This document shows positions 2,865-63,045 of a DNA stretch of 64,000 bases, in pieces. The first letter of the stretch is position 1; the number at the start of each line of letters is the position of its first letter. The notes under the pieces are model-generated. The model saw only the letters and a list, made by a program, of their open reading frames with translations, was not told the origin of the DNA and did no database searches. A program made the translations under genes and the position numbers. Origin of the DNA: Candidatus Iainarchaeum sp. (GTDB lineage: Archaea; Iainarchaeota; Iainarchaeia; Iainarchaeales; JACQJH01); NCBI GenBank assembly GCA_016205145.1, contig JACQJH010000001.1:451501-515500 (forward strand). The letters are read 5' to 3'.

Positions 2865-2911
2865 ATGGTTTCAACAACGGTTATCTATGGTTTCAGCCGC
2901 ATTGTTTGCAT
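2865..2911 (+). promoter_or_regulatory. Conserved 47-nt promoter/operator motif, copy 1: GGTTTCA-n12-TATGGTTTCAGC-n7-TTTGCAT.
   Basis: It is nearly identical to 9181-9227. It contains a TATA-like TAT.TATGG and lies 42 nt upstream of the GGAGG-preceded ATG at 2953. Confidence 0.5.
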
Positions 2912-2952
2912 CAGAGCCTGATTCAGGCAATGTTTTTGCGGAGGAGACGGAA

Positions 2953-3630
2953 ATGCAGGGTTGTTGCGGGGAAGGGCACAAGTCCGGTTCCCATAAGTCT
3001 GGTTCGGCTGGCCAGCAAGCGGAATTCAAAACCAGTGCCGGCGGCAAAAAGCTGGGTTTTGGAAAAACCGCATTGACTGTGGTTTTGGCCTTGGCTGTTG
3101 TAGCAGGACTGCTGTTTTTCCTTCGCCCCGGCTCGACTGGACAGGTGTCCGCAACCGCGACGGGCAATACTGTCGGTGCTGTGGCGCCGGGTTTTGAGTT
3201 GAAGGACATTGCCGGAAACAGCGTGAAGCTGAGCGATTTCAAGGGCAGGGCTGTCATACTTTTTTTCAACGAGGGCGGAATGTGCTATCCTTCGTGCTGG
3301 AACCAGATAAAGGCTCTGGCAACGGATGAAAGGCTTAACAACGAAAACGTGGCGTCTTTCTCCGTGGTGGTTGACAACACTTCGGACTGGGAGAAAATCA
3401 CGGCTCACGTGCCCGGCTTTTCGCAGTCGGGCCTGCTCTTCGACACTTCAAAGGTTGTTTCGTCAAGTTACGGGGCGCTGAACATGCCGTCTTCGATGCA
3501 TGGCGGCATGATGCCGGGGCACACATATTATATCATCGGAAAGGACGGCAAAATAAAGTTCATTTTCGACGACCCGCAGATGGGCGTGAGGAACGACCTG
3601 CTTGCCGCTGAAATAGCAAAGCTGGTTTGA
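2953..3630 (+). CDS. Membrane-anchored thioredoxin-like (TlpA/redoxin family) protein with an N-terminal Cys/His-rich tail (MQGCCGEGHKSGSHKSGS).
   Basis: The active-site-like motif is GGMCYPSCW. There is a TM segment TALTVVLALAVVAGLLFF and a strong GGAGGAG RBS. The in-frame ATG at 2887 lies inside the conserved motif, so it was rejected as a start. Confidence 0.65.
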   Translation: MQGCCGEGHKSGSHKSGSAGQQAEFKTSAGGKKLGFGKTALTVVLALAVVAGLLFFLRPGSTGQVSATATGNTVGAVAPGFELKDIAGNSVKLSDFKGRAVILFFNEGGMCYPSCWNQIKALATDERLNNENVASFSVVVDNTSDWEKITAHVPGFSQSGLLFDTSKVVSSSYGALNMPSSMHGGMMPGHTYYIIGKDGKIKFIFDDPQMGVRNDLLAAEIAKLV

Positions 3631-34461: not shown

Positions 34462-34587
34462 CAAAAATTTGCTTTAAAAACCCTTGCCAGAAAAATTTTT
34501 CTAATCGGTTATCGCAGGCTGTCGCAGGCAGAGGGTTTGAGCGTAGCGAGAACCCTCAACGTCGCACCCGCCGGGCGATGACGGCGA

Positions 34588-34660
34588 GGGCCTGTAGCTC
34601 AGCTGGTAGAGCGCCGCATTCGCATTGCGGAGGCCACGGGTTCGAATCCCGTCGGGTCCA
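34588..34660 (+). tRNA. tRNA-Ala (anticodon CGC) with the G3:U70 identity pair. No CCA is encoded.
   Basis: Cloverleaf GGGCCUG/CGGGUCC acceptor, anticodon loop UUCGCAU, TUC loop TTCGAAT, discriminator A. Confidence 0.85.
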
Positions 34661-34662
34661 AA

Positions 34663-34790
34663 CACGCGCTTTCGATCGCGTGTGCCGAAACCAAGGCGTA
34701 TCACTGTCGTGATACGCCGGGTAAGCAAAAACGCGCTTTCAGCGGGACCGAAACCAAGGCGTACCGATGCTGCAGTTAACCGCGCGGGCT
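34663..34790 (+). repeat. Conserved tRNA-trailer structured module (copy A, with a degenerate second repeat): hairpin + GCCGAAACCAAGGCG + hairpin + CGCCGGGTAAGC.
   Basis: The same module with compensatory stem changes follows tRNA-Ser(UGA) and tRNA-Ser(GGA), and occurs at 51366. Confidence 0.5.
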
Positions 34791-47039: not shown

Positions 47040-48335
47040 ATGGCCGAACCTGTCGATATGAACCATGCGTTTTCAAAGGCGCTTGAACTGATGGAAGGGA
47101 CGCGCAAAAACGTTTTCATTACGGGAAGGGCGGGCACGGGCAAATCGACCCTGCTGGGCCATTTCAAAAGCGTTTCAAAAAAACGGCTTGCTGTAATCGC
47201 CCCGACCGGTGTTGCGGCTGTCAACGTCGGCGGCCAGACAATCCACTCGTTTTTCGGCTTCAAGCCGAACATCACGGTCGGCAAGGTGAAGGTTTCAAAA
47301 AAGCGCAGGATATTCGAGGCCCTAGACGCAATCATCATCGACGAAATTTCGATGGTGCGTGCCGACATCCTGGACTGCATCGACCGTTTCCTGAGAGTCA
47401 ACCGCGGCAATCTTGGCGAGCCGTTCGGCGGCGTGCAGATGATTTTGTTCGGCGACCTCTATCAGCTTCCGCCGATTGTGTCTGGTGCTGAGCGCGCGCA
47501 CTTTTCGACTTTTTACCGAAGCCCATACTTTTTCGACTCGGATGCCTTTGAAGGCCTCGGGCTTGAAATAATCGAGCTTGACGAGGTTTACAGGCAGAAG
47601 GACAGGGAATTCGTAAGCTTGCTTGACGGGGTAAGGCATAACAGGATTTCCGACGAGCACCTGAAGCGCCTGAATGCACGGGTCATGCCGTCCTTTGAGC
47701 CGAAAGAAAACGAATTTTACGTGCGCCTGTGCACGCTGAACAGCATGGCGGATGAAATCAACGCGGCGGAACTCGAAAAAATCAAAGCCTATGAATACCG
47801 CTTCCGCGCGGCATCGGAAGGCGATTTCGGAAACGAGTACATGCCATGCGAACAGGAACTCAAACTCAAACTGGGCGCGCAGGTGATGTTTTTGAACAAC
47901 GATTCGGAAAAGCGCTGGGTGAACGGCTCGATGGGAAAAGTCATAGGCTTCCGCAGGGAAAATGAAAACTATGCAATCCAGGTCGAACTGCCCACAAAGG
48001 AAAAGGTTGCCGTAAACCCGCACACCTGGGAACTGTTCAGGCCGAAACTCGACCCGCTCCGGAACGCGCTCGCATATGAAACGATCGGCTCTTTCACGCA
48101 GTATCCTTTGCGCCTGGCCTGGGCCATCACAATCCACAAAAGCCAGGGAAAAACGTTCGAAAAGGCGATAATCGATTTCGGCCATGGAACATTTGCGCCG
48201 GGACAGGCTTACGTCGCCTTGAGCCGGTGCACGACGCTTGAAGGCATGGTCCTCAAAAGGCCGCTTGAAAAAAGGCACGTGATGGTCGACAAAAAAATCG
48301 CGGACTTCATGGAAAAAGCGAAAAAGCCGGGATGA
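47040..48335 (+). CDS. Pif1/RecD-family 5'-3' DNA helicase.
   Basis: Walker A GRAGTGKST and DEISMV. The C-terminus AITIHKSQGKTF...AYVALSRC is the Pif1/UvrD_C_2 signature. Confidence 0.8.
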   Translation: MAEPVDMNHAFSKALELMEGTRKNVFITGRAGTGKSTLLGHFKSVSKKRLAVIAPTGVAAVNVGGQTIHSFFGFKPNITVGKVKVSKKRRIFEALDAIIIDEISMVRADILDCIDRFLRVNRGNLGEPFGGVQMILFGDLYQLPPIVSGAERAHFSTFYRSPYFFDSDAFEGLGLEIIELDEVYRQKDREFVSLLDGVRHNRISDEHLKRLNARVMPSFEPKENEFYVRLCTLNSMADEINAAELEKIKAYEYRFRAASEGDFGNEYMPCEQELKLKLGAQVMFLNNDSEKRWVNGSMGKVIGFRRENENYAIQVELPTKEKVAVNPHTWELFRPKLDPLRNALAYETIGSFTQYPLRLAWAITIHKSQGKTFEKAIIDFGHGTFAPGQAYVALSRCTTLEGMVLKRPLEKRHVMVDKKIADFMEKAKKPG

Positions 48336-48439
48336 TGGCTAGAACCTAGGGCGCCCAAAGAAATGACTGGTCAAGTGGATAATTGTATGGGTAGATAATT
48401 AATAACATTCATTCAATAAATTAAATTATTTTTTGAAGT

Positions 48440-49150
48440 TTGCGTGTCTGGGTGATTAATATAGGAAACCCAATAAATTTTGTCAAAACAAGTTTTAACA
48501 AAATAATAATCAGCACAAAAATTCAAAAAATCAATTATGTGCAACGAATTCTCCTGCTCGTAGTGTCTTGGACGCTTATTGGCTCGATTATAGGAATAAA
48601 TCTAGTAAAATTTAATCTCATTGAAGTTTCAAATTCGTCAATTATTGGTTTGTGTATTTTTAATTGTAATAATATTCAAAATGTCCAAGACAACAAAATA
48701 ACCGAAGAACAAAGGCAAATTGAATATAATAAACATCTGAGGCTTGTGGATTCAACTATTGCAGAGCTAAAAAACAATAGGGGTATTGCTAATCAGTATT
48801 TTGATGATAACAAATCGTATCTAGTTTATCACTACCTATTTTCAAAACGATTTAAAACGACCCAGCTTGAAACGCTAATAAACTCTTCAGATTTTAGAAA
48901 CAATAGCATTATGGGACTTCTAGGTATAGTTGAAACAAACACCAAAAGTGCAAATAAATATCTTGACAATTTAGAACAAATGTTAAAACAAATTGAAACT
49001 GAAGGGCAGTATGATCAATATGGTAAATATGAAGAAACATTTCAAAATATTTTTGAAAAAATTATTAAACCGCTGAACCAAGCGCAAGAAACATTAATTC
49101 AGTTATTAACAAAATACAAGGTTTCTGTGGGCATTAATTCTTTTCCGTGA
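48440..49150 (+). CDS. Orphan ORF within an approximately 0.85 kb AT-rich islet. It is a membrane-anchored, Asn/Ile/Lys-rich protein, and its start is uncertain.
   Basis: The island has strikingly low GC relative to its flanks. There is one TM segment and no recognised motif. Confidence 0.3.
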   Translation: MRVWVINIGNPINFVKTSFNKIIISTKIQKINYVQRILLLVVSWTLIGSIIGINLVKFNLIEVSNSSIIGLCIFNCNNIQNVQDNKITEEQRQIEYNKHLRLVDSTIAELKNNRGIANQYFDDNKSYLVYHYLFSKRFKTTQLETLINSSDFRNNSIMGLLGIVETNTKSANKYLDNLEQMLKQIETEGQYDQYGKYEETFQNIFEKIIKPLNQAQETLIQLLTKYKVSVGINSFP

Positions 49151-51189: not shown

Positions 51190-51365
51190 GCGAGTCATAC
51201 CGCTTGCGGTTCCCTGGCTTGCCCTCTCATTTTTATCCTGAGCCGCTTTCGTCCGGCTCGCCGTCTCGTCCGGCGGGTACGTTTTGTGGTGTTCGCGCCG
51301 TTGCGGAACACCACGCATGCTTTGCGGGGTTTGCAAGGGGTGCAACCCCTGCGTTTTATCCGGCT
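51190..51365 (+). ncRNA. Candidate structured ncRNA of unknown identity, made of multiple GC-rich hairpins. The strand is uncertain.
   Basis: Nested inverted repeats (GAGCCG..CGGCTC, GTGGTGTTC..GAACACCAC, GGGG-TGCAA-CCCC). No ORF. It is directly followed by a copy of the tRNA-trailer module. Confidence 0.2.
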
Positions 51366-51411
51366 GGTTCGAAACCAAGGCGGCCTGCTGTTGCAAGCCG
51401 CCGAGTGAGTC
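51366..51411 (+). repeat. tRNA-trailer-like module copy B (GGTTCGAAACCAAGGCG + hairpin + CGCCGAGTGAGT), not preceded by a recognisable tRNA.
   Basis: Core GAAACCAAGGCG and CGCCGAGT, with a distinct stem sequence. Confidence 0.4.
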
Positions 51412-51531
51412 AGTACTCCTGACCCTCCCCCGAAATTCCTGATTTTTTCCCACAAAAACCATTAAAAAACTCCCTGACCAAGAATAGTTCAAGGCACCGG
51501 AATCAAAGTGCCAAAAAGCCACCATCAAATT

Positions 51532-51735
51532 GCGGGGGTGGCGGAGCGGTCTAACGCGCCAGCCTTGAGAAACCTTTTTCTTTCTTGAGAAGAAAGAAAA
51601 AGCTTCAATGCAAAATCAAAGATTTTGCATGCATCAAAAATTTGATTTTTGATGTACCAAAAAGAAAGAACCGTTCTTTGTTTCAGGCAAGCTGGTATCC
51701 GAAAGGATGCGCGAGTTCGAATCTCGTCCCCCGCG
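51532..51735 (+). tRNA. tRNA-Ser (anticodon UGA), class II, with an approximately 120-nt intron in the anticodon loop.
   Basis: Exons give a GCGGGGG/CCCCCGC acceptor, a 3-bp D-stem with an 11-nt loop, anticodon stem CCAGC/GCTGG, loop CUUGAG|A, a long variable arm, TTCGAAT, and G73. The intron is 51570-51689. Confidence 0.75.
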
Positions 51736-51736
51736 A

Positions 51737-51800
51737 GCACGCAGTTTCGGCTGCGTGGAGCGAAACTAAGGCGGTTCACACTGTGAACCGCCGAGTAAGC
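51737..51800 (+). repeat. tRNA-trailer module copy C.
   Basis: Hairpin CACGCAG-TTTCGG-CTGCGTG, then GAGCGAAACTAAGGCG, a hairpin, and CGCCGAGTAAGC. Confidence 0.5.
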
Positions 51801-51887
51801 AAAAAAATCACATCGCGTTTTTCGCCTTGCAAAACCGGTTTCGTTTTTAAACATTTTCCACCCAATCTTGGACAAGGTGAGTTGTGG

Positions 51888-52442
51888 ATGAAAAGGCTTG
51901 CAATCGCTTTAATCGCAATCTTATTGCTTTTCGGCTGCACCGTGCCGAAAAAGCCGTCAGGCAATGACAATAATGCGGCTGTAAATCCCCCAGTTGGAGT
52001 TGATTTGATGAAAAACGTTGTGGAAAAAGGCGACACTGTCAAAGCCGACTACATTGGCACGTTTGTCGACGGCAACAAGTTTGATTCTTCGATTGACCGG
52101 AAAGAGCCGCTGGAATTCGTGGCCGGCGCCGGACAGATGATAAAAGGCTTTGACGCCGCAGTCATTGGCATGAAATTGAACGATGAGAAGAACATAACTC
52201 TCCAGCCCAAGGACGCGTACGGCGAAAAGGACCAAAGCCTGGTCAAGCAGGTTCCGAAATCCAATCTTACCGACCAGAACATTTCACCCGAAGTCGGCAT
52301 GACCTTGTTCGCGAACGGCCAGCAGATTGAAGTCACGGCAGTCGACGAGAACACAGTCACTTTGGACTTCAACAGCAGGATGGCGGGCAAAACCCTGAAC
52401 TTCTGGCTCAAAGTGGTCGGAATAACCAAAAAGCGGGCTTAA
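51888..52442 (+). CDS. FKBP-type peptidyl-prolyl cis-trans isomerase, lipoprotein-like.
   Basis: Lipobox LLFGC. FKBP core YIGTFVDGNKFDSS...FVAGAGQMIKGFDAAVIGM. Confidence 0.75.
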   Translation: MKRLAIALIAILLLFGCTVPKKPSGNDNNAAVNPPVGVDLMKNVVEKGDTVKADYIGTFVDGNKFDSSIDRKEPLEFVAGAGQMIKGFDAAVIGMKLNDEKNITLQPKDAYGEKDQSLVKQVPKSNLTDQNISPEVGMTLFANGQQIEVTAVDENTVTLDFNSRMAGKTLNFWLKVVGITKKRA

Positions 52443-52640
52443 ACCAAGCCTGCCCCTCTTTTTTTATTCTTTATTTAACAGCTTTTGGTATGTTAGGATA
52501 AGCCGCCGGGCGGCAGAGGCATTGAGCTTTTGCGAAATGCCTCAACATCGCACGTTGGCGACGAAAACGCGCTGAAAGCGCGTAGGGCTATGCGAGTGAA
52601 ACGAGCATAGTGCGTCGCACCAGACGGGCGATGACGTCTT

Positions 52641-52824
52641 GCGGGGGTGGCGGAGTGGTCTAACGCGCCAGCCTGGAACTGCCCTTTCTTTTCTTTGAAA
52701 AAGAAAAGAAAGTGCAAGGTGCCCAAAGAAAAGAAAACGGGCCATTGCCCGGAAAAGGCGCTTTGCAAGGCACCAACAAGCTGGTTTCCGCAAGGAAGCG
52801 CGAGTTCGAATCTCGTCCCCCGCG
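52641..52824 (+). tRNA. tRNA-Ser (anticodon GGA), class II, with an approximately 100-nt intron.
   Basis: The exons are near-identical to the tRNA-Ser(UGA) exons. The anticodon loop is CUGGAA|A. The intron is 52679-52778. Confidence 0.75.
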
Positions 52825-52888
52825 TGCCGCTTTCGGGCGGCAGTGCCGAAACCAAGGCGTATTGCTAATCGCAATACGCCGAGTAGGC
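52825..52888 (+). repeat. tRNA-trailer module copy D.
   Basis: Hairpin TGCCGC-TTTCGG-GCGGCA, then GTGCCGAAACCAAGGCG, a hairpin, and CGCCGAGTAGGC. Confidence 0.5.
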
Positions 52889-52943: not shown

Positions 52944-53026
52944 GCGGGGTTACCCAAGCGGTTAACGGGAGCGGGTTGAGGGCCCGTAGCTTAGTGCTTA
53001 CAGCGGTTCGAATCCGCTACCCCGCA
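52944..53026 (+). tRNA. tRNA-Leu (anticodon GAG), class II, with no intron.
   Basis: Acceptor GCGGGGT/ACCCCGC, anticodon loop UUGAGGG, long variable arm, A73. An integrase gene lies immediately downstream. Confidence 0.8.
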
Positions 53027-53087: not shown

Positions 53088-54209
53088 ATGATTAAGACAG
53101 AATCGCAGCTTTCAAACTACTTTTCTGGGTTCGAGGAACAGATAGGCAAGCACAACGCCCAGTTAATAATTGCTTTTGCCGAAAAGCACAGGGCGACCGT
53201 TACAGAGCCGAGCCTTCAACGAATTAGCACGGTTTGCATTCGTTTGAAGTCTATTGCCAAGTGGCTGAACAAGCCTCTGGACAGGCTAACCGAAGCCGAC
53301 CTAATCAGGCTTAACACGGCAATGCGCGACAAGGGCATGAAGTCAAGCGCGGACTACCGGCAATGCCTAAAGCACTTTTTCAAGCTGACCGACAAAAAGC
53401 GTTTCTATGACCTCATTGAATCAGAATACCTGCGAAACGTCAAGAAAAAGGGCACAGACCAGCTTGTGGACGCGGAAGAATTTTGGAGTCAAAGCCAATG
53501 CAACGATTATCTCATGGAAAGCCTTAACCGTTCCAAAAGGCACGGTGCGTTTGCTGCAATTTGGTTGTCGTGTGGCATGAGGCCGCATGAAATAATGGGT
53601 TTGCATAAGGCAGACCTTGAATTGGATGGACAAAGCCTTGTAGTCAAGGTTCGGAGCGGCAAAACCGGCAAAAGAACAATCGTGTTAAACGGCAACGAAG
53701 GAACAGGGGTTTTTCGATATGTTGAGCCTTACCTTGACACTTTGAAAGACAACGAAAAGCTATTTTCCCTGACTTACAAGGCCGTTGAAAAATGCCACCA
53801 CAACATTTGTGAAAAAATAGGCTTGCCGGAAGGCAAAAGCCGAAAGCTTTACATGAGCAGAAAACGGACTTTGACACGCTGGTATAACGAGTTTGGGCTT
53901 GTCAAGGCCGCCAAAATGTGCGGCCACGTGCAAGGCGGTCGGGCAATGAAACACTATTTGGACATGACCGACGAGGAATTGAAGGAAAACAAGCGGCCGG
54001 AACGCCTTGAAAACAAGGTTTGCCCCAATCCAAATTGCAAGCAAGTCAACGAACCGCTTAGCGGCCTATGCTCCAAATGCAGCAGCCCGCTGGACAGGGA
54101 ACGCTTTGACGAGCTGATAAAAAGCAGCTTGGACGAACTGGTTGAAACAAAAATTGCGCTGGCAATCGTCAAACTCCAAAATGAAGCCCTGAAACTCAAA
54201 ACCCAATAG
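53088..54209 (+). CDS. int: Tyrosine recombinase/integrase with a C-terminal zinc ribbon.
   Basis: Catalytic region RPHEI...GHVQGGRAMKHY. C-terminal CPNPNC...CSKC. Confidence 0.85.
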   Translation: MIKTESQLSNYFSGFEEQIGKHNAQLIIAFAEKHRATVTEPSLQRISTVCIRLKSIAKWLNKPLDRLTEADLIRLNTAMRDKGMKSSADYRQCLKHFFKLTDKKRFYDLIESEYLRNVKKKGTDQLVDAEEFWSQSQCNDYLMESLNRSKRHGAFAAIWLSCGMRPHEIMGLHKADLELDGQSLVVKVRSGKTGKRTIVLNGNEGTGVFRYVEPYLDTLKDNEKLFSLTYKAVEKCHHNICEKIGLPEGKSRKLYMSRKRTLTRWYNEFGLVKAAKMCGHVQGGRAMKHYLDMTDEELKENKRPERLENKVCPNPNCKQVNEPLSGLCSKCSSPLDRERFDELIKSSLDELVETKIALAIVKLQNEALKLKTQ

Positions 54210-54759
54210 GCTGCCCTTCATGTGCCAACAAAAAGGTTATAAATGCCAGACGATTTATTTACTGTATGAATAGTGCCGGAGCAGGCAATGTTGATGCAAT
54301 AGCTGTTTTTGGTGTTGCCGGAGCGATTTTAGGCGCAATTTTTCCCATTTTTGGAACCAACACCGTCATAGTTGGGCTGTTTGCCGGCATAATAATAGGG
54401 TTCCTTATACAACGGGGGTGATTTTCTGGACACCCCAACATATATAGCAATTTTTGGGCTGTTTGCAGTTCTCCTTCTAATATACCGAAAATTCGTTCTG
54501 AAAAAAGAACTGTCATACAGAATTTATTTTGTGGTTATTCTCGGAACGTTATCTGTTGCAGAAGCCACGTCCGCAATCATTTTGTATTTTTTTAATTTGG
54601 ATTTGGGGATTATAAGCAAAGATTTGCTGTTTGTCGTTGCGGGTGGCTTAATGCTTTTGTTTTCTTTGGGTTTTGTTTTTCGGGAAATTCGCGAGACCGA
54701 AAAATAAGGTTAAGAGCGCTGGAAAAAGGAAAGAAAGGCACATTAGCGGTAGACTAAAA

Positions 54760-55236
54760 CTAATTCTTGCGTTTTCTATTTGAAGTCCTTCTTTTTGCTT
54801 TTGTCTTATAAACTTCGTTTACCAACTTGTTAGAGTAATAACCCCTAATATCTATGCCCAATTCTTCACATGCTTTTTTTCTGGATTTGCCTTGCCGCTT
54901 TTTATTTAAAAGCCTTTTTTTCAAATATTCTCGGTTGTGTTCTGGGCGAATGCCAGAAACCAAAATTTTTTGCACCTTGTTAAACTGTCTTTTCTTAATT
55001 ATCGACTTTTTCGACTCACAATAAAACCCATTTCTAAGAATATAACTGATTGAGCTAACTGGCATTTTCATTATTTCCGCTGTTTTTCTGATTTCAAATT
55101 CTTCCAAAAAGACCTCAAAAATATGTCTAACCTTGTTGGCTGCTTTCTTATCAATAGTCAAAACCTGTATTACCTTCTTTTCTAGTTTATAGCCTAGCGG
55201 GGCACGCCACAAAATTTTATTGCTCATACTAATCAC
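54760..55236 (-). CDS. Basic HTH DNA-binding protein in the element cargo.
   Basis: HTH-like TAEIMKMPVSSISYILRN and a Lys/Arg-rich C-terminus. Confidence 0.35.
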   Translation of the reverse strand: MISMSNKILWRAPLGYKLEKKVIQVLTIDKKAANKVRHIFEVFLEEFEIRKTAEIMKMPVSSISYILRNGFYCESKKSIIKKRQFNKVQKILVSGIRPEHNREYLKKRLLNKKRQGKSRKKACEELGIDIRGYYSNKLVNEVYKTKAKRRTSNRKRKN

Positions 55237-55344
55237 ACTAGTTCTAACTGGGTTTTAAACCAATATGTGGGGTGGCTTCTTGAACAGTATTCGTCAAACT
55301 TTTTTAGAAATGTTTTTCTTGGTCAAAGGGGGTATACTATGGGG

Positions 55345-55503
55345 ATGATTATGCCATCACAAAAACGATTCGGGAAAAAAATGAAACTTTGCGTTAGCGA
55401 GGCAATGTTTGCCCGTTTGCAAAAACTCGCCAAAAAAGAGGAGACGACAATTGCGGAAATCGTTCGCGCCACCCTGAAAAGGGAAGTAGGGGCGGAATTA
55501 TGA
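55345..55503 (+). CDS. Ribbon-helix-helix (CopG/Arc-like) protein.
   Basis: KLCVSEAMFARLQKLAKKEETTIAEIVRATL has the beta-strand plus two helices pattern. It is preceded by a GGGGG RBS. Confidence 0.45.
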   Translation: MIMPSQKRFGKKMKLCVSEAMFARLQKLAKKEETTIAEIVRATLKREVGAEL

Positions 55504-55651
55504 CCTTGTTCGCTGGAATTCCTGTGGAGAAAATTCGAAAAAGTGCGGAACTCCGCGAGGCGTTCCTTGAACTCAAAAAGGCTTTCGAGCCGGGGCGCAT
55601 TGAAAAATAAAAAAAGGCGAGGCCCTGCAAGACCTCGGCCAAAAAGAAGGT

Positions 55652-55915
55652 ATGCCAATGCAGATTACGATTTCTAGAAATAAAAGCACGGGGCTGGCGC
55701 TTTACGACGGCAAAGCCTGCGCGGTTTGCGGGGCAACGAAAGGAGGGGCAAAACGTTGGGTGTTTGTGTTTTCATACTGTCAAAAAGCCAAGGTTTGCGG
55801 CCCGTGCGTTTTTCAAATAGGCCCAGCAAATGTTTCCGAGTGGCTTGAAAAAAAAGCTGTTTTTGACAAAAAAGGCTATTTGACCGGCTTTCGGCCGGGG
55901 GTGGTCGTCCCGTGA
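55652..55915 (+). CDS. Small Cys-cluster (zinc-finger-like) protein.
   Basis: CAVCG...YCQKAKVCGPC. Confidence 0.35.
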   Translation: MPMQITISRNKSTGLALYDGKACAVCGATKGGAKRWVFVFSYCQKAKVCGPCVFQIGPANVSEWLEKKAVFDKKGYLTGFRPGVVVP

Positions 55916-56514
55916 CCTCTACACCGGATGAAACAACAACGCTTGAAGAGAGCAGGCGAGTTTCGGAATTGAAGCACCTGAGCAAGGAAGCTTTTTTGAT
56001 ACAGATTACCGCAACGGAAAAGAAGATTCAGGAAGCTTTAGTAGCTGTGAAAAAACTCCATGCCAATGCCGAAATTATTTTGCAGGGAACCGCACTTGGC
56101 AAATTTGGAAAACTCGCAGACAAAGCTTTTACAGTTCTTCAAAAAAATGGCCAATTTTCAACAAACGATGCTAGCAAATTTGGCGTATTTGGTTCAAGAG
56201 ACCTGGACAAACTCTTCACTGAAATCTCAAAACGTTATCCTGAAGTGCGAACACAAAAAACCACGTTGTACGGCTCCAACCAGAAAATTCGGGTCGCAGT
56301 AATTGACGTACACGAGTTCGAAAAGGCAAAATCTGGGCCTTACAATGACATTCGCAATTTTGTCGTTGAGAAAAATCCGACACGTGACCAACTCATTGAA
56401 AAGTTTGGCTGGGGCGAAAAAGTCGCTAATGATACAATCGCATTGCTTGCGCGGAAGGGAATGCTTTGCTGGTCAGATGGCAGATATTCCTGGGAGGACG
56501 CTCAACTAGTCTGA
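55912..56514 (+). CDS. Hypothetical element protein of 200 aa.
   Basis: It is translationally coupled to the upstream ORF. No motif was recognised. Confidence 0.3.
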   Translation: MTSTPDETTTLEESRRVSELKHLSKEAFLIQITATEKKIQEALVAVKKLHANAEIILQGTALGKFGKLADKAFTVLQKNGQFSTNDASKFGVFGSRDLDKLFTEISKRYPEVRTQKTTLYGSNQKIRVAVIDVHEFEKAKSGPYNDIRNFVVEKNPTRDQLIEKFGWGEKVANDTIALLARKGMLCWSDGRYSWEDAQLV

Positions 56515-57178
56515 GGGAGTTGGGTTGTTGTAGAGTAGTATAGTAGAGTTGAAAACATATATCTCAACTAACTCCCCCCTACTTAGTTGGGTACGTTATA
56601 GGTCTATGAAAAATTATGAGAGAAAAGGAATGTTCCCAACTGGTTAAGGGGAGTTGGGTATTTTGTAAGGTGTTTTTGTGAAAAAGTCTGAAACTCAGCT
56701 TGTCCGAACAAACCTTTTGTTGCCTGAGTCTTGCCGGGCTGTGTTGAGGTTAGTTGGCTCTGGTAGCTTGTCAAAAGGTTGCAGAATTTTGGCACAGCAG
56801 GCGATTAAAACAGAGTTTGCGGCTGGCAGGCCGCGAAAATTTGACGGCGGGAAAGGCAAGGAAAATGTTGCGCATTACCACACTGGTTTTCAGAGTGCTT
56901 TCGATATACTTGAACAGCAAAAGAAGGTGGTTGGTTGAATAAAAAGAAGCGGCAAAGGCGTGTGCAGGAGTTTCTGTTTTTGGACGAGCCAACGCCCACA
57001 GCCTTGTTCCTGAAGCTGAACCGGCTTTCAAGGCAAGGCTGGCGAACCGAAATTACTGACGTCCACCATACCGAGTTTTTCCGTTCCTGCACGGCTGTTG
57101 TTTCGTGGCGTCGTGTCATGCCGCGTTTTAGCATTTCCTACACGGGAAAGGGAAACTGAAGTCAAAGGAGGACTGACT

Positions 57179-57544
57179 ATGAAAAATGCAGAAATTAAGA
57201 AAACAAAAGAAGAAACGCCATCAACCCTTGGGAACGAAACGTCTGATGAGGAAGCCGAACCAGGGCCGAAACCCAAAGGCAGGCCGCCGAAATCTTCCAT
57301 AAAAATCGAAGGCGAACCGCAGCAGGACGCGTGCGAAAAAATGCAGCAGTTGGCAATTTGTTTGACCTCGATTGACATGAGCAAGCTTTCATGGCTGAAG
57401 AGGAAAGGCCATTTTTCATACCTGTCCGAAACGATGCGGGAACTCGTGCGTGCCGAGTTTTTGCGGCTGCACCCCGAACCACCATTGTGGCCGGATGATA
57501 GTGTTTGGAAGAAACAGGGGAAGGACAAGACGACGGTTGGTTGA
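57179..57544 (+). CDS. Hypothetical protein with an AT-hook-like GRP motif (PKPKGRPPKSS).
   Basis: A GGAGG RBS precedes the ATG at 57179. Confidence 0.3.
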   Translation: MKNAEIKKTKEETPSTLGNETSDEEAEPGPKPKGRPPKSSIKIEGEPQQDACEKMQQLAICLTSIDMSKLSWLKRKGHFSYLSETMRELVRAEFLRLHPEPPLWPDDSVWKKQGKDKTTVG

Positions 57545-59097
57545 GGCAAGAAGGTGGTTTGTTTGGTGAAATCGAGGCGAAAGCTGCTCAACGAACTCGG
57601 CGGCTTGAGGCGCAGCAATAACGCTTTGAAAAGCGAGCTTGACGCATTAAGATTGCCGGAAGGCGAGCTTTGGCGCAAGGCGCATACATTGTTTCAAGAA
57701 AACCTGCGGCTTCGTGCAGAATTGGAACAGATACGAAAACAGAGGGCTAGTTTCCCATGAAACCCGCAGCAATCGCACAGGATTCACACAACTTCTGACA
57801 GGATTGCAACCAAAACAGACCTTTTTGGGCGTTTTTCAGTCATTTTAAGCCCATTTTGGGCTTGTTTTGAAGCCTTTTCCGGCTGCTTTCTCGGCCGGTG
57901 AGGGGTGTGTGTGAGATGCTTTTTGCTGGGCTACTTTTATCTGTAAACCCCATTAAATGATTCGCAAAGTAATTTGACGATTACCAAAAAAATTTTTTTC
58001 GATGGCAACTGCTGCCGCAATAGCATTTGTTTAGGGTGGTTGGATGGCTCGGAAAATCATTGGGCGATACCTATTATCGAGAGGTGTCTCTATTATTGGC
58101 CGGTCAAAAATCAAAAACAAAGCCAATTTTCCAAAAAATTTTCAGAAAACCGAGTATCGACTCGACGAAAAGAAAAGCGTTTACTTGCAATGGGCTGAAA
58201 TCAGGGATGCGTGGGTTAACTTCCAAAGCCTCGATGACCTGACCACTTGGCTGGAAGACATTTTGCCTAACGCTTCCGGCAAATATTATATCAGATGCTT
58301 CGCTGAATGGCACGCGTTCATTCCCCAGCCAACCACAAAGAAACGGTTGAAAAGAAAACGCGGCCGACCGTTCAGCAAAAAGGAAAGAAAGTTTAGAATT
58401 GGTTGGGACATCATTTGTGCCTTTGCCATAGAATCCGGCACGGTAATGAGAGTCTTCGCGCACAAGCGAGGCAAAACCGATTATTCGCCGAAGCGGCGGA
58501 ATGCTTACTGGCTTTTGGGTGCAATCCAAGACCAGAAGGAAGGCAAGCATGTCTTCGACCAGATTTAAAGGCGGGCAAAGCCTACATGCTTTTTTCGCAA
58601 ACCATTTGCCTTCAACCCGCAACGCCCTGCCCCGCAAACGGTTAAGGCATTGCCAGCAAGGGAGTTTAGTAGAAAAGCCCCGCATTTGCCTTCAAGCCAA
58701 GCAGGAGCGCGGGCGCAAAAGCCTTGCAGTTGAAATTAAGCCATGCCAACAAAAGATTAACCATGCTGGCTGCGCGTCCATAAAATCATTTGCGAAAATC
58801 GCAAGCCAAAAGGGCAGGAGTTGTGAGGCCATTTCTCATTAAGGCCTTAACACTTTTGAAAAGCGTTGACGAATACAAGCCCTTTCCCGAAAACCCTTTC
58901 GACTATTCCAGCCAGCCCCTTGTGCAGAAAAGCCCCACAGAAGGCTTCAAGGCTTTCCACTTCACCGGCGAAAAATGCCTAAAGAATAGTTCAACATATG
59001 CAGCAAAAACATTGCGCTTTTGAAAAGTGTTTGCCTTTCAATCAAAAGCCTTCAACGCTTCTCTAAAGGGTCAATTGTTTTTCATTCATTTCTCGTT

Positions 59098-59946
59098 TTA
59101 TTGGAGTTGCACTTCAATTGGAATTGCTATTTCTGGAGTGCCACAAATAATAGAATATGGCGTCACTGAGTTGTCAACTTGTCCAACACAAATGGTAACT
59201 GAGCCTGCTTCATTCTGGCTTGTAGAGCCATAACTCGAATAAGCTATTTTTAGTACAGTGCTTTGTTTTGGTCTTAAATTATATAACTCATCTTCGAACC
59301 CTATAATACCAACGTTATGCGATGTGCTATTAATTGACGTTCTAATGCCCTGCACCTCAAAATCAGAATCGTTTGTTATTGTAAGTGTTTTTTCATCCTT
59401 ATAGACCGTTTCTTTGATACTTGGTTCGTTTGGATAAACCGGCATGCTTTTCGGAGTCAAATCAATTTTTTTCGGGGCGACTTCCAGTTTTATTTCTGGC
59501 GGTGGAATTTGGAATGTTTTGCAGTCGGATGAATTAGACACGCAATAACGGATAGGGGAAATTTCTAGAGACTCTGATTGCAACAGTATGCCAATGAGAG
59601 AAGCTGAACAAACACTTTGTGGTTCACAAGAAATAGTGGTTGGCAAAGAGTCCACCGCGCTAATGCTATCATAATATATATTTAGCTCAATAGCTTTACC
59701 TTCATTTGACTTATTTTCAAATTTTACCTCTGCTGTTCCAATGGGTCTTATATCTTGTTTTGCGCCTATCGCCGCCATATCAATTGGATAGATAGATTTC
59801 CAGTTTGCCCCTTTAAATTCAATCGAGTCTATTTTAGGTTGGGCTTGTTGGATACAGCCGGTTAAAAAAATTCCTGTCAAAAAGACTGCAATCAAGATTA
59901 GCAAAATATTCCGGCCAGGTCCTAATTTTTCCCAATTATTGTTCAT
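59098..59946 (-). CDS. Secreted or lipoprotein-like element protein.
   Basis: N-terminal TM/signal with LTGC. The domain is beta-rich and Ser/Thr-rich. Confidence 0.35.
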   Translation of the reverse strand: MNNNWEKLGPGRNILLILIAVFLTGIFLTGCIQQAQPKIDSIEFKGANWKSIYPIDMAAIGAKQDIRPIGTAEVKFENKSNEGKAIELNIYYDSISAVDSLPTTISCEPQSVCSASLIGILLQSESLEISPIRYCVSNSSDCKTFQIPPPEIKLEVAPKKIDLTPKSMPVYPNEPSIKETVYKDEKTLTITNDSDFEVQGIRTSINSTSHNVGIIGFEDELYNLRPKQSTVLKIAYSSYGSTSQNEAGSVTICVGQVDNSVTPYSIICGTPEIAIPIEVQLQ

Positions 59947-60035
59947 TATACCACACTCTTATTGTCAAAACCCAGTATAAATATGTTACGTTACTGTTAC
60001 TCTGGCTTTAATTTAGGGGTTCAGTCACTAATTCT

Positions 60036-60284
60036 ATGTCTGAGTATGACCTGTTGGCGCAGATTAGGCGCGGCAAGATTAAACCCCAAATCCTTAAGCT
60101 TTTACAAGAACCAAAAACGCCAACAGACTTGAAAAAGATTATCGGAGCCCATAGAGAAACAATCAGCAGAGCAATACTCGAAATGGAAGAAAAAGGCCTA
60201 GTAACTTGTCTGAACCCAAAACAACCAAACTTTAGGTACTATCAAATTACAAACAAAGGAAAAAACCTATTGAAGAAAGTATGA
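60036..60284 (+). CDS. Small winged-HTH (ArsR/MarR-like) regulator.
   Basis: ILKLLQEPKTPTDLKKIIGAHRETISRAILEMEEKGLV. Confidence 0.45.
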   Translation: MSEYDLLAQIRRGKIKPQILKLLQEPKTPTDLKKIIGAHRETISRAILEMEEKGLVTCLNPKQPNFRYYQITNKGKNLLKKV

Positions 60285-60302
60285 GAATTTCTTATTTGCA
60301 CC

Positions 60303-61265
60303 CTAGTTAAGTAATTTTTCGCATTCTGCACTTGATTCACGCCATATACAAAATGTTACTTCTTTTTCTAGGGGGTATGACTGTTCTGTGCAATTTTCAC
60401 AATAGAGGGATACATTTAATTTGTGTAAGCCCACGGGGACGTTTTCTGGGTTACACTTTTGTTTATGTGCCCCGTCTGGCCTCTCGCTGCAGGCATTGAA
60501 TGAAATTTTCATATCTCTTTTTGTGCTTTCTAATCCGCTTAGGTTTTGGATAGTACTTTCTAGTATTTGTGGCCAGAAAATGCTATTTACGCCATTGCTG
60601 TCCTTCTCATTTGCAAGCATAGTAATTATTCCGGTATCTGTAATACCAAGATTTTGCAGTTTAAGTTTTAACCAACCGCCCGAGATTTGTTTATAATTCC
60701 CATTTTCATCAGTTTCAAATTTTGCTATTTCGCTGGCACTAAAAAATAAATCTGTTTTTTCGTCACCAAAACTTGTTTGCAAGTATGGAATGATATGTGG
60801 CGTTCTATCTAAAGTTGTGGCTAAAAGCCGTGTTTGATTCGACATCTCTTCAACTGTTTTCTTGTTTTCATTTAAAAAAGAGGCATTGAAGTATGCGCCC
60901 ACGAGAAGCGCGGCTAGAGTTATTACTGCAACTACTTTTGAAATATTTAAAGAAAAATTCGCAATCTTTGAATTTTCTTCTGCTTTGTCAGCTAGTTTTT
61001 TTGCCGATTCTGCAATTTGTTTTGTTTCTTCCACCATACTTTTTGTTGCAGCTATATTTCTATCTTGTCTTTCTAGTGAGTGCCAAAATTTTCTTTTATT
61101 ATCTTCGGCTTTGAAAGGCTCAGCCCTGCTATCTGTGAGTTTGTAGGCAAAACGAACAACTAATTCGACTTCTTCGTCTGTGCAATCGGACATGTTTCTT
61201 TTGCCAGTCACTACACTGTTAGCAATCTCAATAGCTCTGTTTTCGTCACTGAGCATAAAAATCAA
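60303..61265 (-). CDS. Membrane/coiled-coil protein with a C-terminal Cys-rich module.
   Basis: A TM helix, a long alpha-helical region, and a C-terminus CSERPDG...CNPEN...CENC...FCIW...C. Confidence 0.35.
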   Translation of the reverse strand: MIFMLSDENRAIEIANSVVTGKRNMSDCTDEEVELVVRFAYKLTDSRAEPFKAEDNKRKFWHSLERQDRNIAATKSMVEETKQIAESAKKLADKAEENSKIANFSLNISKVVAVITLAALLVGAYFNASFLNENKKTVEEMSNQTRLLATTLDRTPHIIPYLQTSFGDEKTDLFFSASEIAKFETDENGNYKQISGGWLKLKLQNLGITDTGIITMLANEKDSNGVNSIFWPQILESTIQNLSGLESTKRDMKISFNACSERPDGAHKQKCNPENVPVGLHKLNVSLYCENCTEQSYPLEKEVTFCIWRESSAECEKLLN

Positions 61266-61270
61266 TTAAA

Positions 61271-61831
61271 CTATGTTAAATCAAGTAAGTCCGTTTTGTT
61301 AGCAAGGTTGAGTAGGCCAGTGGAAAAAACCCAAGACGCAATCGCTAATGTGCCAAGTCCTGCCACTGCCAATATAACTTTGGCGATAAAAATTACTTGT
61401 GCTACAATAACCTGATTACTAAACAGCAACATTAATTTTACTAGAGGACTTTGATTAAACTCAGTTGTCGATAAATAAATTGTAGCATTAAAAAAAATTA
61501 ATCCGAAAATAAAAAGAATGGTGGAAGTAAAAAAGTTTTTTCCAGATTCTGTCGCAATTGTCTTTTGTTTTTTTTCATTCACTGCTCTGCTAAATTCAAA
61601 ACTTAGGAGGCTAAATGTTGTTGAAACAACAATTGCTGCTTCCCATAGCACGAAATATTCGGCAAATTCGTTCAATCTATTTATGTCTGGAATTAATCTA
61701 AGGATAAACGCAAATATTGCCAACGTAACTAAGCCGGCAATCATAACTGCCGACAATTTAATGGCAATTTTTATAATTTTGTTTATTTTTTTCTTAATAT
61801 TGGACTTGTCGAACTTTTTCAATAAAAACAC
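61271..61831 (-). CDS. Polytopic membrane protein (AT-rich cargo).
   Basis: Multiple hydrophobic helices. Confidence 0.35.
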   Translation of the reverse strand: MFLLKKFDKSNIKKKINKIIKIAIKLSAVMIAGLVTLAIFAFILRLIPDINRLNEFAEYFVLWEAAIVVSTTFSLLSFEFSRAVNEKKQKTIATESGKNFFTSTILFIFGLIFFNATIYLSTTEFNQSPLVKLMLLFSNQVIVAQVIFIAKVILAVAGLGTLAIASWVFSTGLLNLANKTDLLDLT

Positions 61832-61877
61832 CTATTAATTTGGTTGAAATTTACGATTCAAATACGAAAATCAACAA

Positions 61878-62615
61878 TTATACTTTCAAAATGTATTGTT
61901 TATCCTTCTTTGTCCAGCGGCCTTTTAGGATTATTGGGTGCGCTCCTTTTTCGACATATTTGCCAGAATAATAGTTTAAATCTGCGCTTTCTCCAACGTC
62001 TAAAATTGCTACAATCAAGTCAGGATAAAAGTTTGTATATTCTTCTATTTGTGCCATTAGATTTCGCAAAACATTGTTGTTTTTTGCTATTTTGACTTCA
62101 ATGCCAATTCTTCTGTTTATGACCATGTCTATTTTTTCGCCATGCTCTAATGGCACTTCAGGTTCAACCTGCCAATGCGGTTTGCTTGCTTTTAACAATG
62201 TTTCCAAAACAAATGACAATTCCCGTTCATTTTGAAAAATTCTATCAGACTCAAATTTTTTTAATATCCCAAGTATTTCTAACACTTCTGAATCAATTGG
62301 TGTTTTTCTTTTGTAAACCCACAAATTAGCCCATTTATCAATACGCTCCATATCGGCCATAAGTCCTTTGAAAAAAGACACTGTTGGTATTGATAATAGG
62401 AATAATCCTAAAAGCAAGCTCAATAGGCTACTAACAAAATCTGTTTTGAACCCACCCCAACCAAAAATTCCAGCTAAACCCAAAAATACCGATATGACAC
62501 CAATAGCTAGTAAAACAACAAAAAGTTCTGTTTTGGTTATCTTTTTTTGTCGTTTTGAGGGTGTGTTATTCCATGTATTTTTAGGCCTGCGCGCAAATGA
62601 TTTGAACCTGCCCAT
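61878..62615 (-). CDS. Membrane-anchored protein with a PD-(D/E)xK nuclease-like C-terminal motif.
   Basis: N-terminal TMs. The C-terminal GEKIDMVINRRIGIEVK has the D...E.K arrangement. Confidence 0.35.
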   Translation of the reverse strand: MGRFKSFARRPKNTWNNTPSKRQKKITKTELFVVLLAIGVISVFLGLAGIFGWGGFKTDFVSSLLSLLLGLFLLSIPTVSFFKGLMADMERIDKWANLWVYKRKTPIDSEVLEILGILKKFESDRIFQNERELSFVLETLLKASKPHWQVEPEVPLEHGEKIDMVINRRIGIEVKIAKNNNVLRNLMAQIEEYTNFYPDLIVAILDVGESADLNYYSGKYVEKGAHPIILKGRWTKKDKQYILKV

Positions 62616-63045
62616 CTGCCAAAATTATGTCCTTCTAGTTAAAAAGTTTTTCGGCATTATTGGCTGTGGCTTTAAAGTTGTAGGTTGCATTTGAGCATTT
62701 AACAATTCAGTACAAGCAGAGTTAAAGTTCTCGCAATTCATAGTTTCCGGTCTTGTTTAAAACCCATTCTAGCTTTTGTCCGGCTTGCCAGCCTTTGGCC
62801 TTGACAAGCGGTGGCGCGATTGTGAGAACAAACGCCCCGCTTTGGTGTTGTTGGAGTTTTGGCATTTCGGTTCACCAAAAAAACTTTATATTAGTATTGA
62901 CATTATATAAGATATAAAAGCAGGGGTTATAACGTAGAATTGTAATCAATCAGAACGCATTTTTTTATTTCGGCTACCCCGCATCATAATCTGATTCGTC
63001 ACTTGTGCATGGTCGTATTTTCTCTGGTTAATTTTTTTGGCGGCC

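Follow-up and report, generated by a model that had tools for sequence, protein, structure and literature searches.

Two neighboring serine tRNA genes of the DPANN archaeon Candidatus Iainarchaeum sp., tRNA-Ser(UGA) and tRNA-Ser(GGA), are each interrupted by a long intron that carries a module of three matched tracts: a perfect polypyrimidine/polypurine hairpin, followed by a second purine tract that repeats the purine arm of the hairpin in mirror image. Both genes lie in a 64,000-nucleotide (nt) stretch of assembly GCA_016205145.1 (contig JACQJH010000001.1, positions 451,501 to 515,500 of the forward strand), hereafter the window, in which positions 51532-52824 form the region under study. 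A preliminary description of this region had noted the two genes and the palindromes in their introns; we find that each palindrome is two thirds of a larger module, and that a third, mirror-image purine tract accompanies each. Judged from the sequences, all three tracts vary together from gene to gene, and the module is very probably under selection. We tentatively propose it as a candidate intramolecular RNA triplex, formed in the pre-tRNA, the excised intron or the cleaved 3' trailer.

Three matched tracts in tRNA-Ser introns and trailers

The intron of tRNA-Ser(UGA) (51570-51689, + strand; 120 nt, 30% GC, at tRNA position 37/38) begins with the palindrome CTTTTTCTTTCTT-GAG-AAGAAAGAAAAAG, a hairpin (HP1, 51574-51602, + strand) with 13-base-pair (bp) arms and a 3-nt loop. 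Its pyrimidine arm, Y1, spans 51574-51586, and its purine arm, R1, spans 51590-51602. Further downstream lies a second purine tract, R2 (AAAAAGAAAGAA; 51659-51670, + strand), which is an exact mirror of R1 at 12 of 12 positions and the parallel complement of Y1. A partial pyrimidine tract, Y2 (TTCTTTGTTT; 51674-51683, + strand), is able to pair with R2 and is found in only some relatives. Similarly, the intron of tRNA-Ser(GGA) (52679-52778, + strand; 100 nt, 46% GC, again at 37/38) carries CTTTCTTTTCTTT-GAA-AAAGAAAAGAAAG as HP1 (52684-52712, + strand; 13-bp arms, 3-nt loop), with Y1 at 52684-52696 and R1 at 52700-52712. Here R2 (AAAGAAAAGAAAA; 52725-52737, + strand) matches R1 at 12 of 13 positions in a pattern that is itself mirror-symmetric, and the motif TGCCC precedes both Y1 and R2. 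The palindromes first described as almost perfect are real and in fact pair perfectly, with the second loop being GAA instead of GAAAA; likewise, the lengths of roughly 100-120 nt given for the introns hold, but at 46% GC the Ser(GGA) intron is hardly AT-rich.

Together with the relatives described below, we identified eleven modules with ten distinct patterns. All share one order: Y1 (the U/C arm), a 3-4-nt loop, R1 (the A/G arm), a 4-13-nt linker and the purine tract R2, the one longer linker being that of the window Ser(UGA) intron (55 nt, composed of a 6-nt linker and a 49-nt insertion). HP1 is a perfect polypyrimidine/polypurine hairpin of 9-13 bp in every module. In all eleven, R2 is R1 read backwards over 9-13 nt, or in other words the base-by-base complement of Y1 in the same direction, and 119 of 128 three-way aligned positions are U-A/A or C-G/G. 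In every module the mirror match extends over the full arm, and in 12 of 12 cases the direct match is no longer than it. The six asymmetric patterns (window UGA, L008 GGA, L001, L002, L008 UGA module A and the L010 trailer) are all mirror and none direct: the mirror match is strictly longer, and the A-run lengths of R2, bounded by non-A bases, are those of R1 in reverse order. When R2 tracts were reassigned among modules, the observed fit was reached in 0 of 20,000 permutations. Moreover, 60 dinucleotide-matched simulations of the window contained no polypyrimidine/polypurine hairpin of at least 9 bp, the longest being 8 bp. This clean three-way covariation is unexpected, and the module lies in RNA that is certainly transcribed.

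The relatives came from two scans anchored on the 5' exon, one of genomes (an exact 5'-exon pattern, one genome per species) and one of metagenomes, and from homologue searches with a neighboring gene. The genome scan yielded six loci, all in DPANN metagenome-assembled genomes, three of them labeled Candidatus Iainarchaeum. Three of the six carry introns of 86-90 nt at 37/38 (L001 Ser(CGA), L002 Ser(UGA) and L004 Ser(GGA)), and three are intronless. From the metagenome scan we recovered L008, a contig of 533 kb on which interrupted Ser(UGA) and Ser(GGA) genes lie in tandem, and the close relatives L007 and L009, in which tRNA-Ser(UGA), a prolyl isomerase gene and tRNA-Ser(GGA) follow one another as in the window. 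In the window, the gene between the two tRNAs encodes an FKBP-type prolyl isomerase, whose homologues are annotated as Diapherotrites or ‘ainarchaeum’; a homologue search with this protein gave two useful loci, L010 and L018, the remainder being irrelevant or holding intronless genes. Viral contigs scanned for the exon plus a pyrimidine run gave 0 matches. We treat L007, L009 and L018 as close relatives of the window, and L001, L002, L004, L008 (four modules) and L010 as independent evidence.

The two window introns align across their shared parts, bearing out the relatedness first suggested for them: position, 5' flank, hairpin, linker motif and downstream purine tract are held in common, and the remainder has diverged. 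On this alignment, both derive from one intron family that is also present in the UGA, GGA and CGA serine tRNAs of relatives. In L018, whose prolyl isomerase is 92% identical, the Ser(UGA) intron is 71 nt long and otherwise identical to the window intron minus 49 nt, so the 120-nt window intron is the 71-nt intron plus a private insertion. This insertion (51606-51654, + strand) lies in the R1-R2 linker, is private to this genome and is also missing from the 87-nt intron of L007. It folds into two similar 10-bp A/T-rich hairpins with 3-nt loops (51608-51630 and 51632-51654). A second copy of either hairpin was sought in the 64-kb window with up to 3 mismatches and none was found; we accordingly rejected a MITE-like element, a class defined by multiple genomic copies, terminal inverted repeats and a target duplication, within that span.

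In the approximately 190 kb of sequence examined, polypyrimidine/polypurine hairpins with arms of at least 9 bp occur only at tRNA-Ser genes, and the few 8-bp A/T-rich hairpins found elsewhere all lack R2. The module is present in introns of the UGA, GGA and CGA isoacceptors, with two copies in tandem in one L008 intron. Two 3' trailers carry it as well: one immediately follows tRNA-Ser(UGA) in L008, the other an intronless tRNA-Ser(GCU) in L010. The module is therefore independent of the anticodon loop. We found no module in the rest of the window, in the neighboring tRNA-Leu and tRNA-Ala genes, in the flanks of intronless tRNA-Ser genes of other relatives, or in about 40 kb of unrelated DPANN-like loci. 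Homologue loci of purD, the neighbor of the L008 tRNA-Ser pair, had no tRNA-Ser and were used as a negative control for the module. Overall, the module is tied to tRNA-Ser transcripts, always in parts that are removed from the mature tRNA (introns and 3' trailers). Within this lineage long introns have been gained and lost; the module is confined to serine tRNAs.

One could regard these tracts as functionless remnants of an old or mobile intron, low in complexity and drifting by replication slippage. Tract lengths do differ by single A/T steps, as slippage would produce, the window intron has recently gained its 49-nt insertion, and some relatives have lost the intron altogether. We nevertheless judge this explanation highly improbable: slippage and gene conversion create direct or inverted repeats and never mirror repeats, the three tracts are matched across ten patterns with no permutation as good, HP1 is perfect in every case, and the module is retained in a small DPANN genome and recurs in trailers.

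Splice sites and intron class

Three tRNA genes lie on the + strand of the region: Ser(UGA), Ser(GGA) and Leu(GAG). With default settings, ARAGORN reports only tRNA-Leu(GAG) (52944-53026) and overlooks both serine genes. With introns allowed, it adds two interrupted genes at 51531-51736 and 52640-52825, mis-splicing the first by a few bases and so calling it Ala(tgc). Under sensitive filters, the Rfam tRNA model extends across both inserts, scoring 39.1 bits for Ser(UGA) and 43.0 for Ser(GGA) against a gathering score of 29. ARAGORN, Rfam and in-silico splicing together place tRNA-Ser(UGA) at 51532-51735 (+ strand; exon 1, 51532-51569; exon 2, 51690-51735) and tRNA-Ser(GGA) at 52641-52824 (+ strand; exon 1, 52641-52678; exon 2, 52779-52824). 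When the exons are joined at 37/38, ARAGORN recognizes tRNA-Ser(tga) and tRNA-Ser(gga), respectively. The three approaches thus agree with the preliminary description on two tRNA-Ser genes with long introns, and its near-identical exons are identical at 78 of 85 positions. Default tRNA finders overlook these genes.

The bulge-helix-bulge (BHB) motif is the substrate of the archaeal tRNA splicing endonuclease. Unconstrained folding of the pre-tRNAs misfolds the D and anticodon arms, so we used constrained folding and explicit pair counting in the canonical register, in which positions 32-35 face the four intron bases preceding the 3' bulge and the two 3-nt bulges are 36-37^i1 and i(n-1)-i(n)^38. 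The Ser(UGA) intron has a strict motif, with a central helix of CUUG/CAGG (4 of 4 pairs) and bulges AG^A and CA^A. That of the Ser(GGA) intron is relaxed: its central helix, CUGG/CCAA, has 3 of 4 pairs and one C-A mismatch, the bulges are AA^C and CA^A, and the outer helix comprises 4 bp (UGCC/GGCA). BHB motifs at the splice sites had been named as a check on these introns, and with both junctions in this geometry at 37/38, real introns are favored. The same register is common to all ten introns of the family; in each, 2-4 of the 4 central pairs form and the two 3-nt bulges are in place, and in-silico splicing yields a canonical tRNA-Ser by ARAGORN in 10 of 10. The splice position is fixed at 37/38 because the anticodon loops of intronless homologues, CUUGAGA (L003, UGA) and CUGGAAA (L005 and L006, GGA), equal the joined exons.

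Both introns therefore show the features of the archaeal BHB class, namely a restored cloverleaf, position 37/38 and the geometry of bulges and 4-bp helix. DPANN splicing endonucleases with an L3 loop are associated with relaxed motifs (PMC5829648). We regard the two inserts as almost certainly genuine BHB introns on this sequence evidence; Ser(UGA) and Ser(GGA) are ordinary archaeal tRNA genes with ordinary archaeal introns.

The introns fold far more stably than shuffled sequences (z = -5.9 and -5.1), and searches of Rfam at gathering and permissive thresholds returned no family for the introns or their flanks. The suggestion that they encode a guide RNA gained no support: neither C/D nor H/ACA boxes are present, Rfam gives only sub-threshold noise, and no C/D box family comes near its threshold, the sole match being sR4 on the opposite strand (15.7 bits against 50). 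By eye, CUGA is absent from both introns, and a single UGAUGU lies inside the 49-nt insertion of the Ser(UGA) intron. Nor do they resemble the relic of a mobile intron that had also been proposed, as we found no open reading frame (ORF), no Rfam group I or II match and no second copy of intron or insertion in the window; at 100-120 nt, they leave no space for an internal ORF, and no ribozyme core was detected. The introns are not guide RNAs, not ribozymes and not demonstrably mobile. A stable processed small RNA may nonetheless derive from them.

Long archaeal BHB introns at 37/38 are known, one example being the approximately 100-nt haloarchaeal tRNA-Trp intron with its C/D box guide. The window introns resemble such introns in their position, in the two 3-nt bulges around a 4-bp helix, in a length of about 100 nt, in the occurrence of related introns in paralogous tRNAs and in that they may hold a functional RNA. 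Unlike the haloarchaeal tRNA-Trp intron, they have neither C/D boxes nor guide complementarity, and their conserved content is instead the pyrimidine/purine hairpin with its mirror purine tract, which is also found in 3' trailers. In Thermoproteales, intron families are shared or transposed among tRNA genes. As there, several tRNA genes of one genome here have recognizably related introns; in contrast to that group, only serine isoacceptors carry the present family, in every case at 37/38. Descent of the paralogues from a common ancestor would account for this sharing as well as mobility would. In the literature searched, we found no description of such a module in tRNA introns.

Triple-helix reading and its alternatives

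Base triples are the one established reason for homopurine mirror symmetry, which is what leads us to a triple helix. Base-triple formation is the sole mechanism among those we considered that explains the three-way covariation, and we prefer it because slippage and gene conversion give direct or inverted repeats and two-fold protein binding predicts direct ones. The third strand of the antiparallel purine motif is itself a purine strand, opposite in direction to the purine strand of the duplex and paired with it like with like, in A·A-U(T) and G·G-C triples (PMC7583470). The 119 of 128 module positions follow the sequence rule of this motif, with the qualification that the folding of RNA in such a motif is disputed (PMC7583470).

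In the proposed structure, the Y1-R1 hairpin would form first in the transcript, and R2 would then fold back through the short linker to lie antiparallel to R1 in the major groove. An unbroken row of 9-13 A·A-U and G·G-C triples would result, making an intramolecular ‘paperclip’ triplex of the purine motif. R1 ends at the foot of the hairpin and R2 would set out from there, so that a linker of 4-13 nt would suffice; the long linker of the window Ser(UGA) intron is also compatible with fold-back, because its insertion consists of two self-contained hairpins that are tolerable in a loop. Both in the pre-tRNA and in the intron or trailer once removed, such a triplex would be a compact and rigid domain, probably resistant to nucleases. 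Its purpose, we would guess, might be to stabilize or mark a by-product RNA of tRNA-Ser maturation, or alternatively to keep a long insert folded away from the tRNA body. The full claim, of a natural all-RNA antiparallel R·R-Y triplex of 9-13 consecutive triples that DPANN archaea have conserved and that splicing or 3' processing frees from tRNA-Ser precursors, goes further and seems to us doubtful.

Several observations weigh against an RNA triplex of this kind. The tracts are about 80% A, and A-rich tracts favor U·A-U triplexes and suit the purine motif poorly. Along its antisense strand, the module runs mirror-Y, linker, Y, loop, R, which would make the chemically better U·A-U triplex, so an antisense RNA or a DNA-level structure may be involved. 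At the closing C-G pair, R2 carries C rather than G in 8 of 11 modules, the sole recurrent exception to the matching. In some introns, competing helices would keep R2 in a loop or pair it with the downstream Y2. Low sequence complexity also allows Y1 to pair with R2 by ordinary or wobble pairs; in ten of the 11 modules such pairing reaches 66-113% of the energy of Y1:R1, with a median of about 80%, and the value for L004 was computed with a mismatched 14th base and is excluded. The independent lineages are few, and several loci are close to the window. Finally, evidence is mixed on RNA strands in purine-motif triplexes, and the triplexes that the same review describes within folded RNAs are of the U·A-U type (PMC7583470).

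The energies of the Y1:R2 duplexes raise the question of a conformational switch in the RNA, in which Y1 would choose between R1 next to it and the more distant R2 and thereby alter the presentation of the intron or trailer, for example at the BHB outer helix or a processing site. In the symmetric Ser(GGA) intron of the window, TTTCTTTTCTTTG and CAAAGAAAAGAAA are complementary at 13 of 13 positions, and TGCC(C) precedes both Y1 and R2, such that either copy can pair with GGCA at the 3' end of the intron. Selection for Watson-Crick pairing, however, predicts a direct copy, whereas R2 is an exact mirror in six of six asymmetric patterns, which weakens that pairing; moreover, the local 13-bp triloop hairpin would be expected to prevail on kinetic as well as thermodynamic grounds. 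A switch is quite unlikely in our estimation, and a Watson-Crick switch or direct repeat as the selected feature, energetically possible as it is, we rejected on the mirror orientation of R2 in every asymmetric module.

The mirror repeat of R1 and R2 could instead act in the gene itself, as a non-B DNA structure. Purine-motif triplexes are well established for DNA, unlike RNA. Possible forms are H-DNA under supercoiling and an intramolecular triplex, which would be of the purine motif if formed on the displaced non-template strand and mirror-Y·R-Y if formed on the template strand, with pausing of RNA or DNA polymerase, or an influence on recombination or integration at tRNA-Ser genes, as the effect. 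The module falls within the definition of homopurine/homopyrimidine mirror repeats, the triplex-forming H-DNA class. Consistent with a DNA palindrome, no G-U pair occurs in the HP1 arms of any of the 11 modules, and an integrase gene lies beside the intronless tRNA-Leu, so tRNA genes here are integration targets. Homopurine/homopyrimidine mirror repeats define H-DNA, which stalls polymerases (PMC11667243), and the module has mirror repeats of that type. It shares with H-DNA and designed intramolecular purine-motif DNA triplexes (PMC11667243) an exact homopurine mirror symmetry, a like-with-like alignment of purines (A with A-T, G with G-C) and short connecting loops.

We consider a DNA-level role unlikely. 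H-DNA requires only R1 and R2, leaving the perfect same-strand Y1 with its 3-nt loop unexplained, and unlike H-DNA the module has all three tracts on one strand, in an orientation fixed relative to transcription. All modules, including the two in trailers and the tandem pair, are oriented alike with respect to the tRNA. It is hard to see what would be gained by stalling polymerases within essential tRNA genes; spacers of 4-13 nt and an adjacent hairpin suit the folding of a single strand better, and the single-stranded molecule most certainly present here is RNA.

A hairpin with a single-stranded purine tract could also serve, with no triplex, as a platform for a protein or a trans-acting RNA on a stable by-product RNA, either an excised and possibly circular intron or a cleaved trailer. 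The confinement of the module to the removed parts of tRNA-Ser precursors would suit such a co-expressed small RNA. In archaea, introns often persist as stable circles, and functional RNAs are found in some of them, the C/D box RNA of the haloarchaeal tRNA-Trp intron being one. The tract sequence, however, varies between paralogues and species and yet is matched within each module, so a sequence-specific partner would need to co-change, and known guide boxes are lacking. A symmetric protein dimer we rejected by reasoning, since two-fold symmetry leads to direct and not mirror repeats. Overall, a platform of this kind strikes us as improbable.

Among known RNA triplexes, those of the ENE type (MALAT1, MEN-beta and PAN) are U·A-U triplexes of the pyrimidine motif (PMC7583470), with an 11-triple structure determined (PMC7102945). 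Like them, the module has three homopurine/homopyrimidine tracts on one strand, about ten potential consecutive triples with few G/C positions, and a location beside a tRNA or tRNA-like processing site; its antisense strand even has the tract order of MALAT1 (Hoogsteen Y, linker, Watson-Crick Y, loop, R). Unlike them, the sense strand has one pyrimidine and two purine tracts, so that a triplex would be of the antiparallel purine motif and not U·A-U, and the module is archaeal and lies internally or at the 5' end of a trailer instead of forming a 3'-end cap. We therefore did not assign the sense transcript to the ENE/MALAT1 pyrimidine-motif class, the second U-rich tract (Y2) being present in only some introns; that class, in which two U-rich strands clamp one A-rich strand and the third strand is parallel to the purine strand, would fit only a hypothetical antisense transcript. 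In the literature searched, including the review PMC7583470, we found no natural purine-motif triplex in RNA.

Were the RNA triplex real, it would bear on the old question of whether purine-motif triplexes with RNA strands occur in nature, and would offer a small, easily synthesized model system and a new kind of structured, tRNA-linked small RNA. If the module instead acts at the DNA level, it would be a conserved H-DNA-like element within essential tRNA genes. Either way, it is a lineage-specific feature linked to tRNA-Ser in poorly studied DPANN archaea.

Leaders, trailers and neighboring DNA

In L010, the trailer module after tRNA-Ser(GCU) is followed, within 2891-3000, by one more hairpin and by the purine tract in its third copy (AAAAGAAAAAAG), directly upstream of the start codon of the FKBP-type prolyl isomerase. 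The L010 module may thus be part of a tRNA-mRNA co-transcript.

A different, structured 3' trailer is common to the tRNA-Ala, tRNA-Ser(UGA) and tRNA-Ser(GGA) genes of the window. Its elements are, in order, a GC-rich hairpin whose loop is of the TTTCG type, GAAACYAAGGCG, a hairpin that is variable and covarying, and CGCCGRGTRRG. Sites of this type lie at 34661-34726, 34750-34761, 51361-51409, 51738-51800 and 52826-52888 in the window, and at L009 438-449, L018 431-442 and L019 17-28 in relatives; the trailer 12-mer occurs 5 times in the window against 0.97 expected. The copy at 51361-51409 has no tRNA ahead of it. The trailer has no Rfam match, and a kink-turn reading of the motif GAAACYAAGGCG...CGCCGAGTRRG was rejected, as inspection by hand found neither the G-A pair nor the 3-nt bulge.

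Similarly, tRNA-Ala(CGC) and tRNA-Ser(GGA) have in common a long structured 5' leader (window 34531-34587 and 52508-52640), composed of GGCAGAGG, a covarying hairpin, CCTCAAC and a hairpin formed from the conserved GTCGCACC....GGGCGATGAC, which ends 4-5 nt ahead of the tRNA. At roughly 60-130 nt, these leaders are unusually long for archaeal tRNAs; that of tRNA-Ser(UGA) is different and shorter. Co-folding of leader and trailer gives separate hairpins instead of a joint processing stem. The window tRNA-Ala(CGC) (34588-34660) is intronless, and in L003 (3243-3390) a tRNA-Ala(CGC) has a 76-nt intron at 37/38 that is free of the polypyrimidine/polypurine module.

Window positions 51200-51420, in the intergenic stretch that separates tRNA-Ser(UGA) from the GMP synthase gene (- strand, start at 51031), contain a run of GC-rich hairpins with TTTCGT loops and a trailer-type motif. 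No tRNA or Rfam family was detected in this segment, which could be an unrecognized small RNA or the remnant of a lost tRNA gene.

Downstream, a tyrosine-recombinase gene of the phage integrase family (53088-54209, + strand) starts 62 nt past tRNA-Leu(GAG), and about 9 kb of low-GC DNA (54000-63000; 34-49% against about 52%) contains ORFs with no Pfam match. A repeat of the tRNA-Leu 3' end that could serve as an attachment site was not found in the window. The integrase gene and the low-GC DNA look like a mobile element integrated at tRNA-Leu. At 47040-49150, a gene for a PIF1-like helicase (47040-48335) and a following 236-amino-acid ORF with no Pfam match lie in a patch of 38% GC. Situated immediately upstream of the GMP synthase gene, this patch may represent a further small island of foreign DNA. 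Finally, beside the tRNA-Ser pair of L008 lies a purD-like gene (1032-2378, - strand; phosphoribosylamine-glycine ligase). Its homologues, 75-84% identical, are annotated as coming from DPANN archaea (Pacearchaeota and Nanoarchaeota) and from Patescibacteria (CPR bacteria), a distribution that suggests recent transfer of the gene between the two groups, both of them small-celled organisms.

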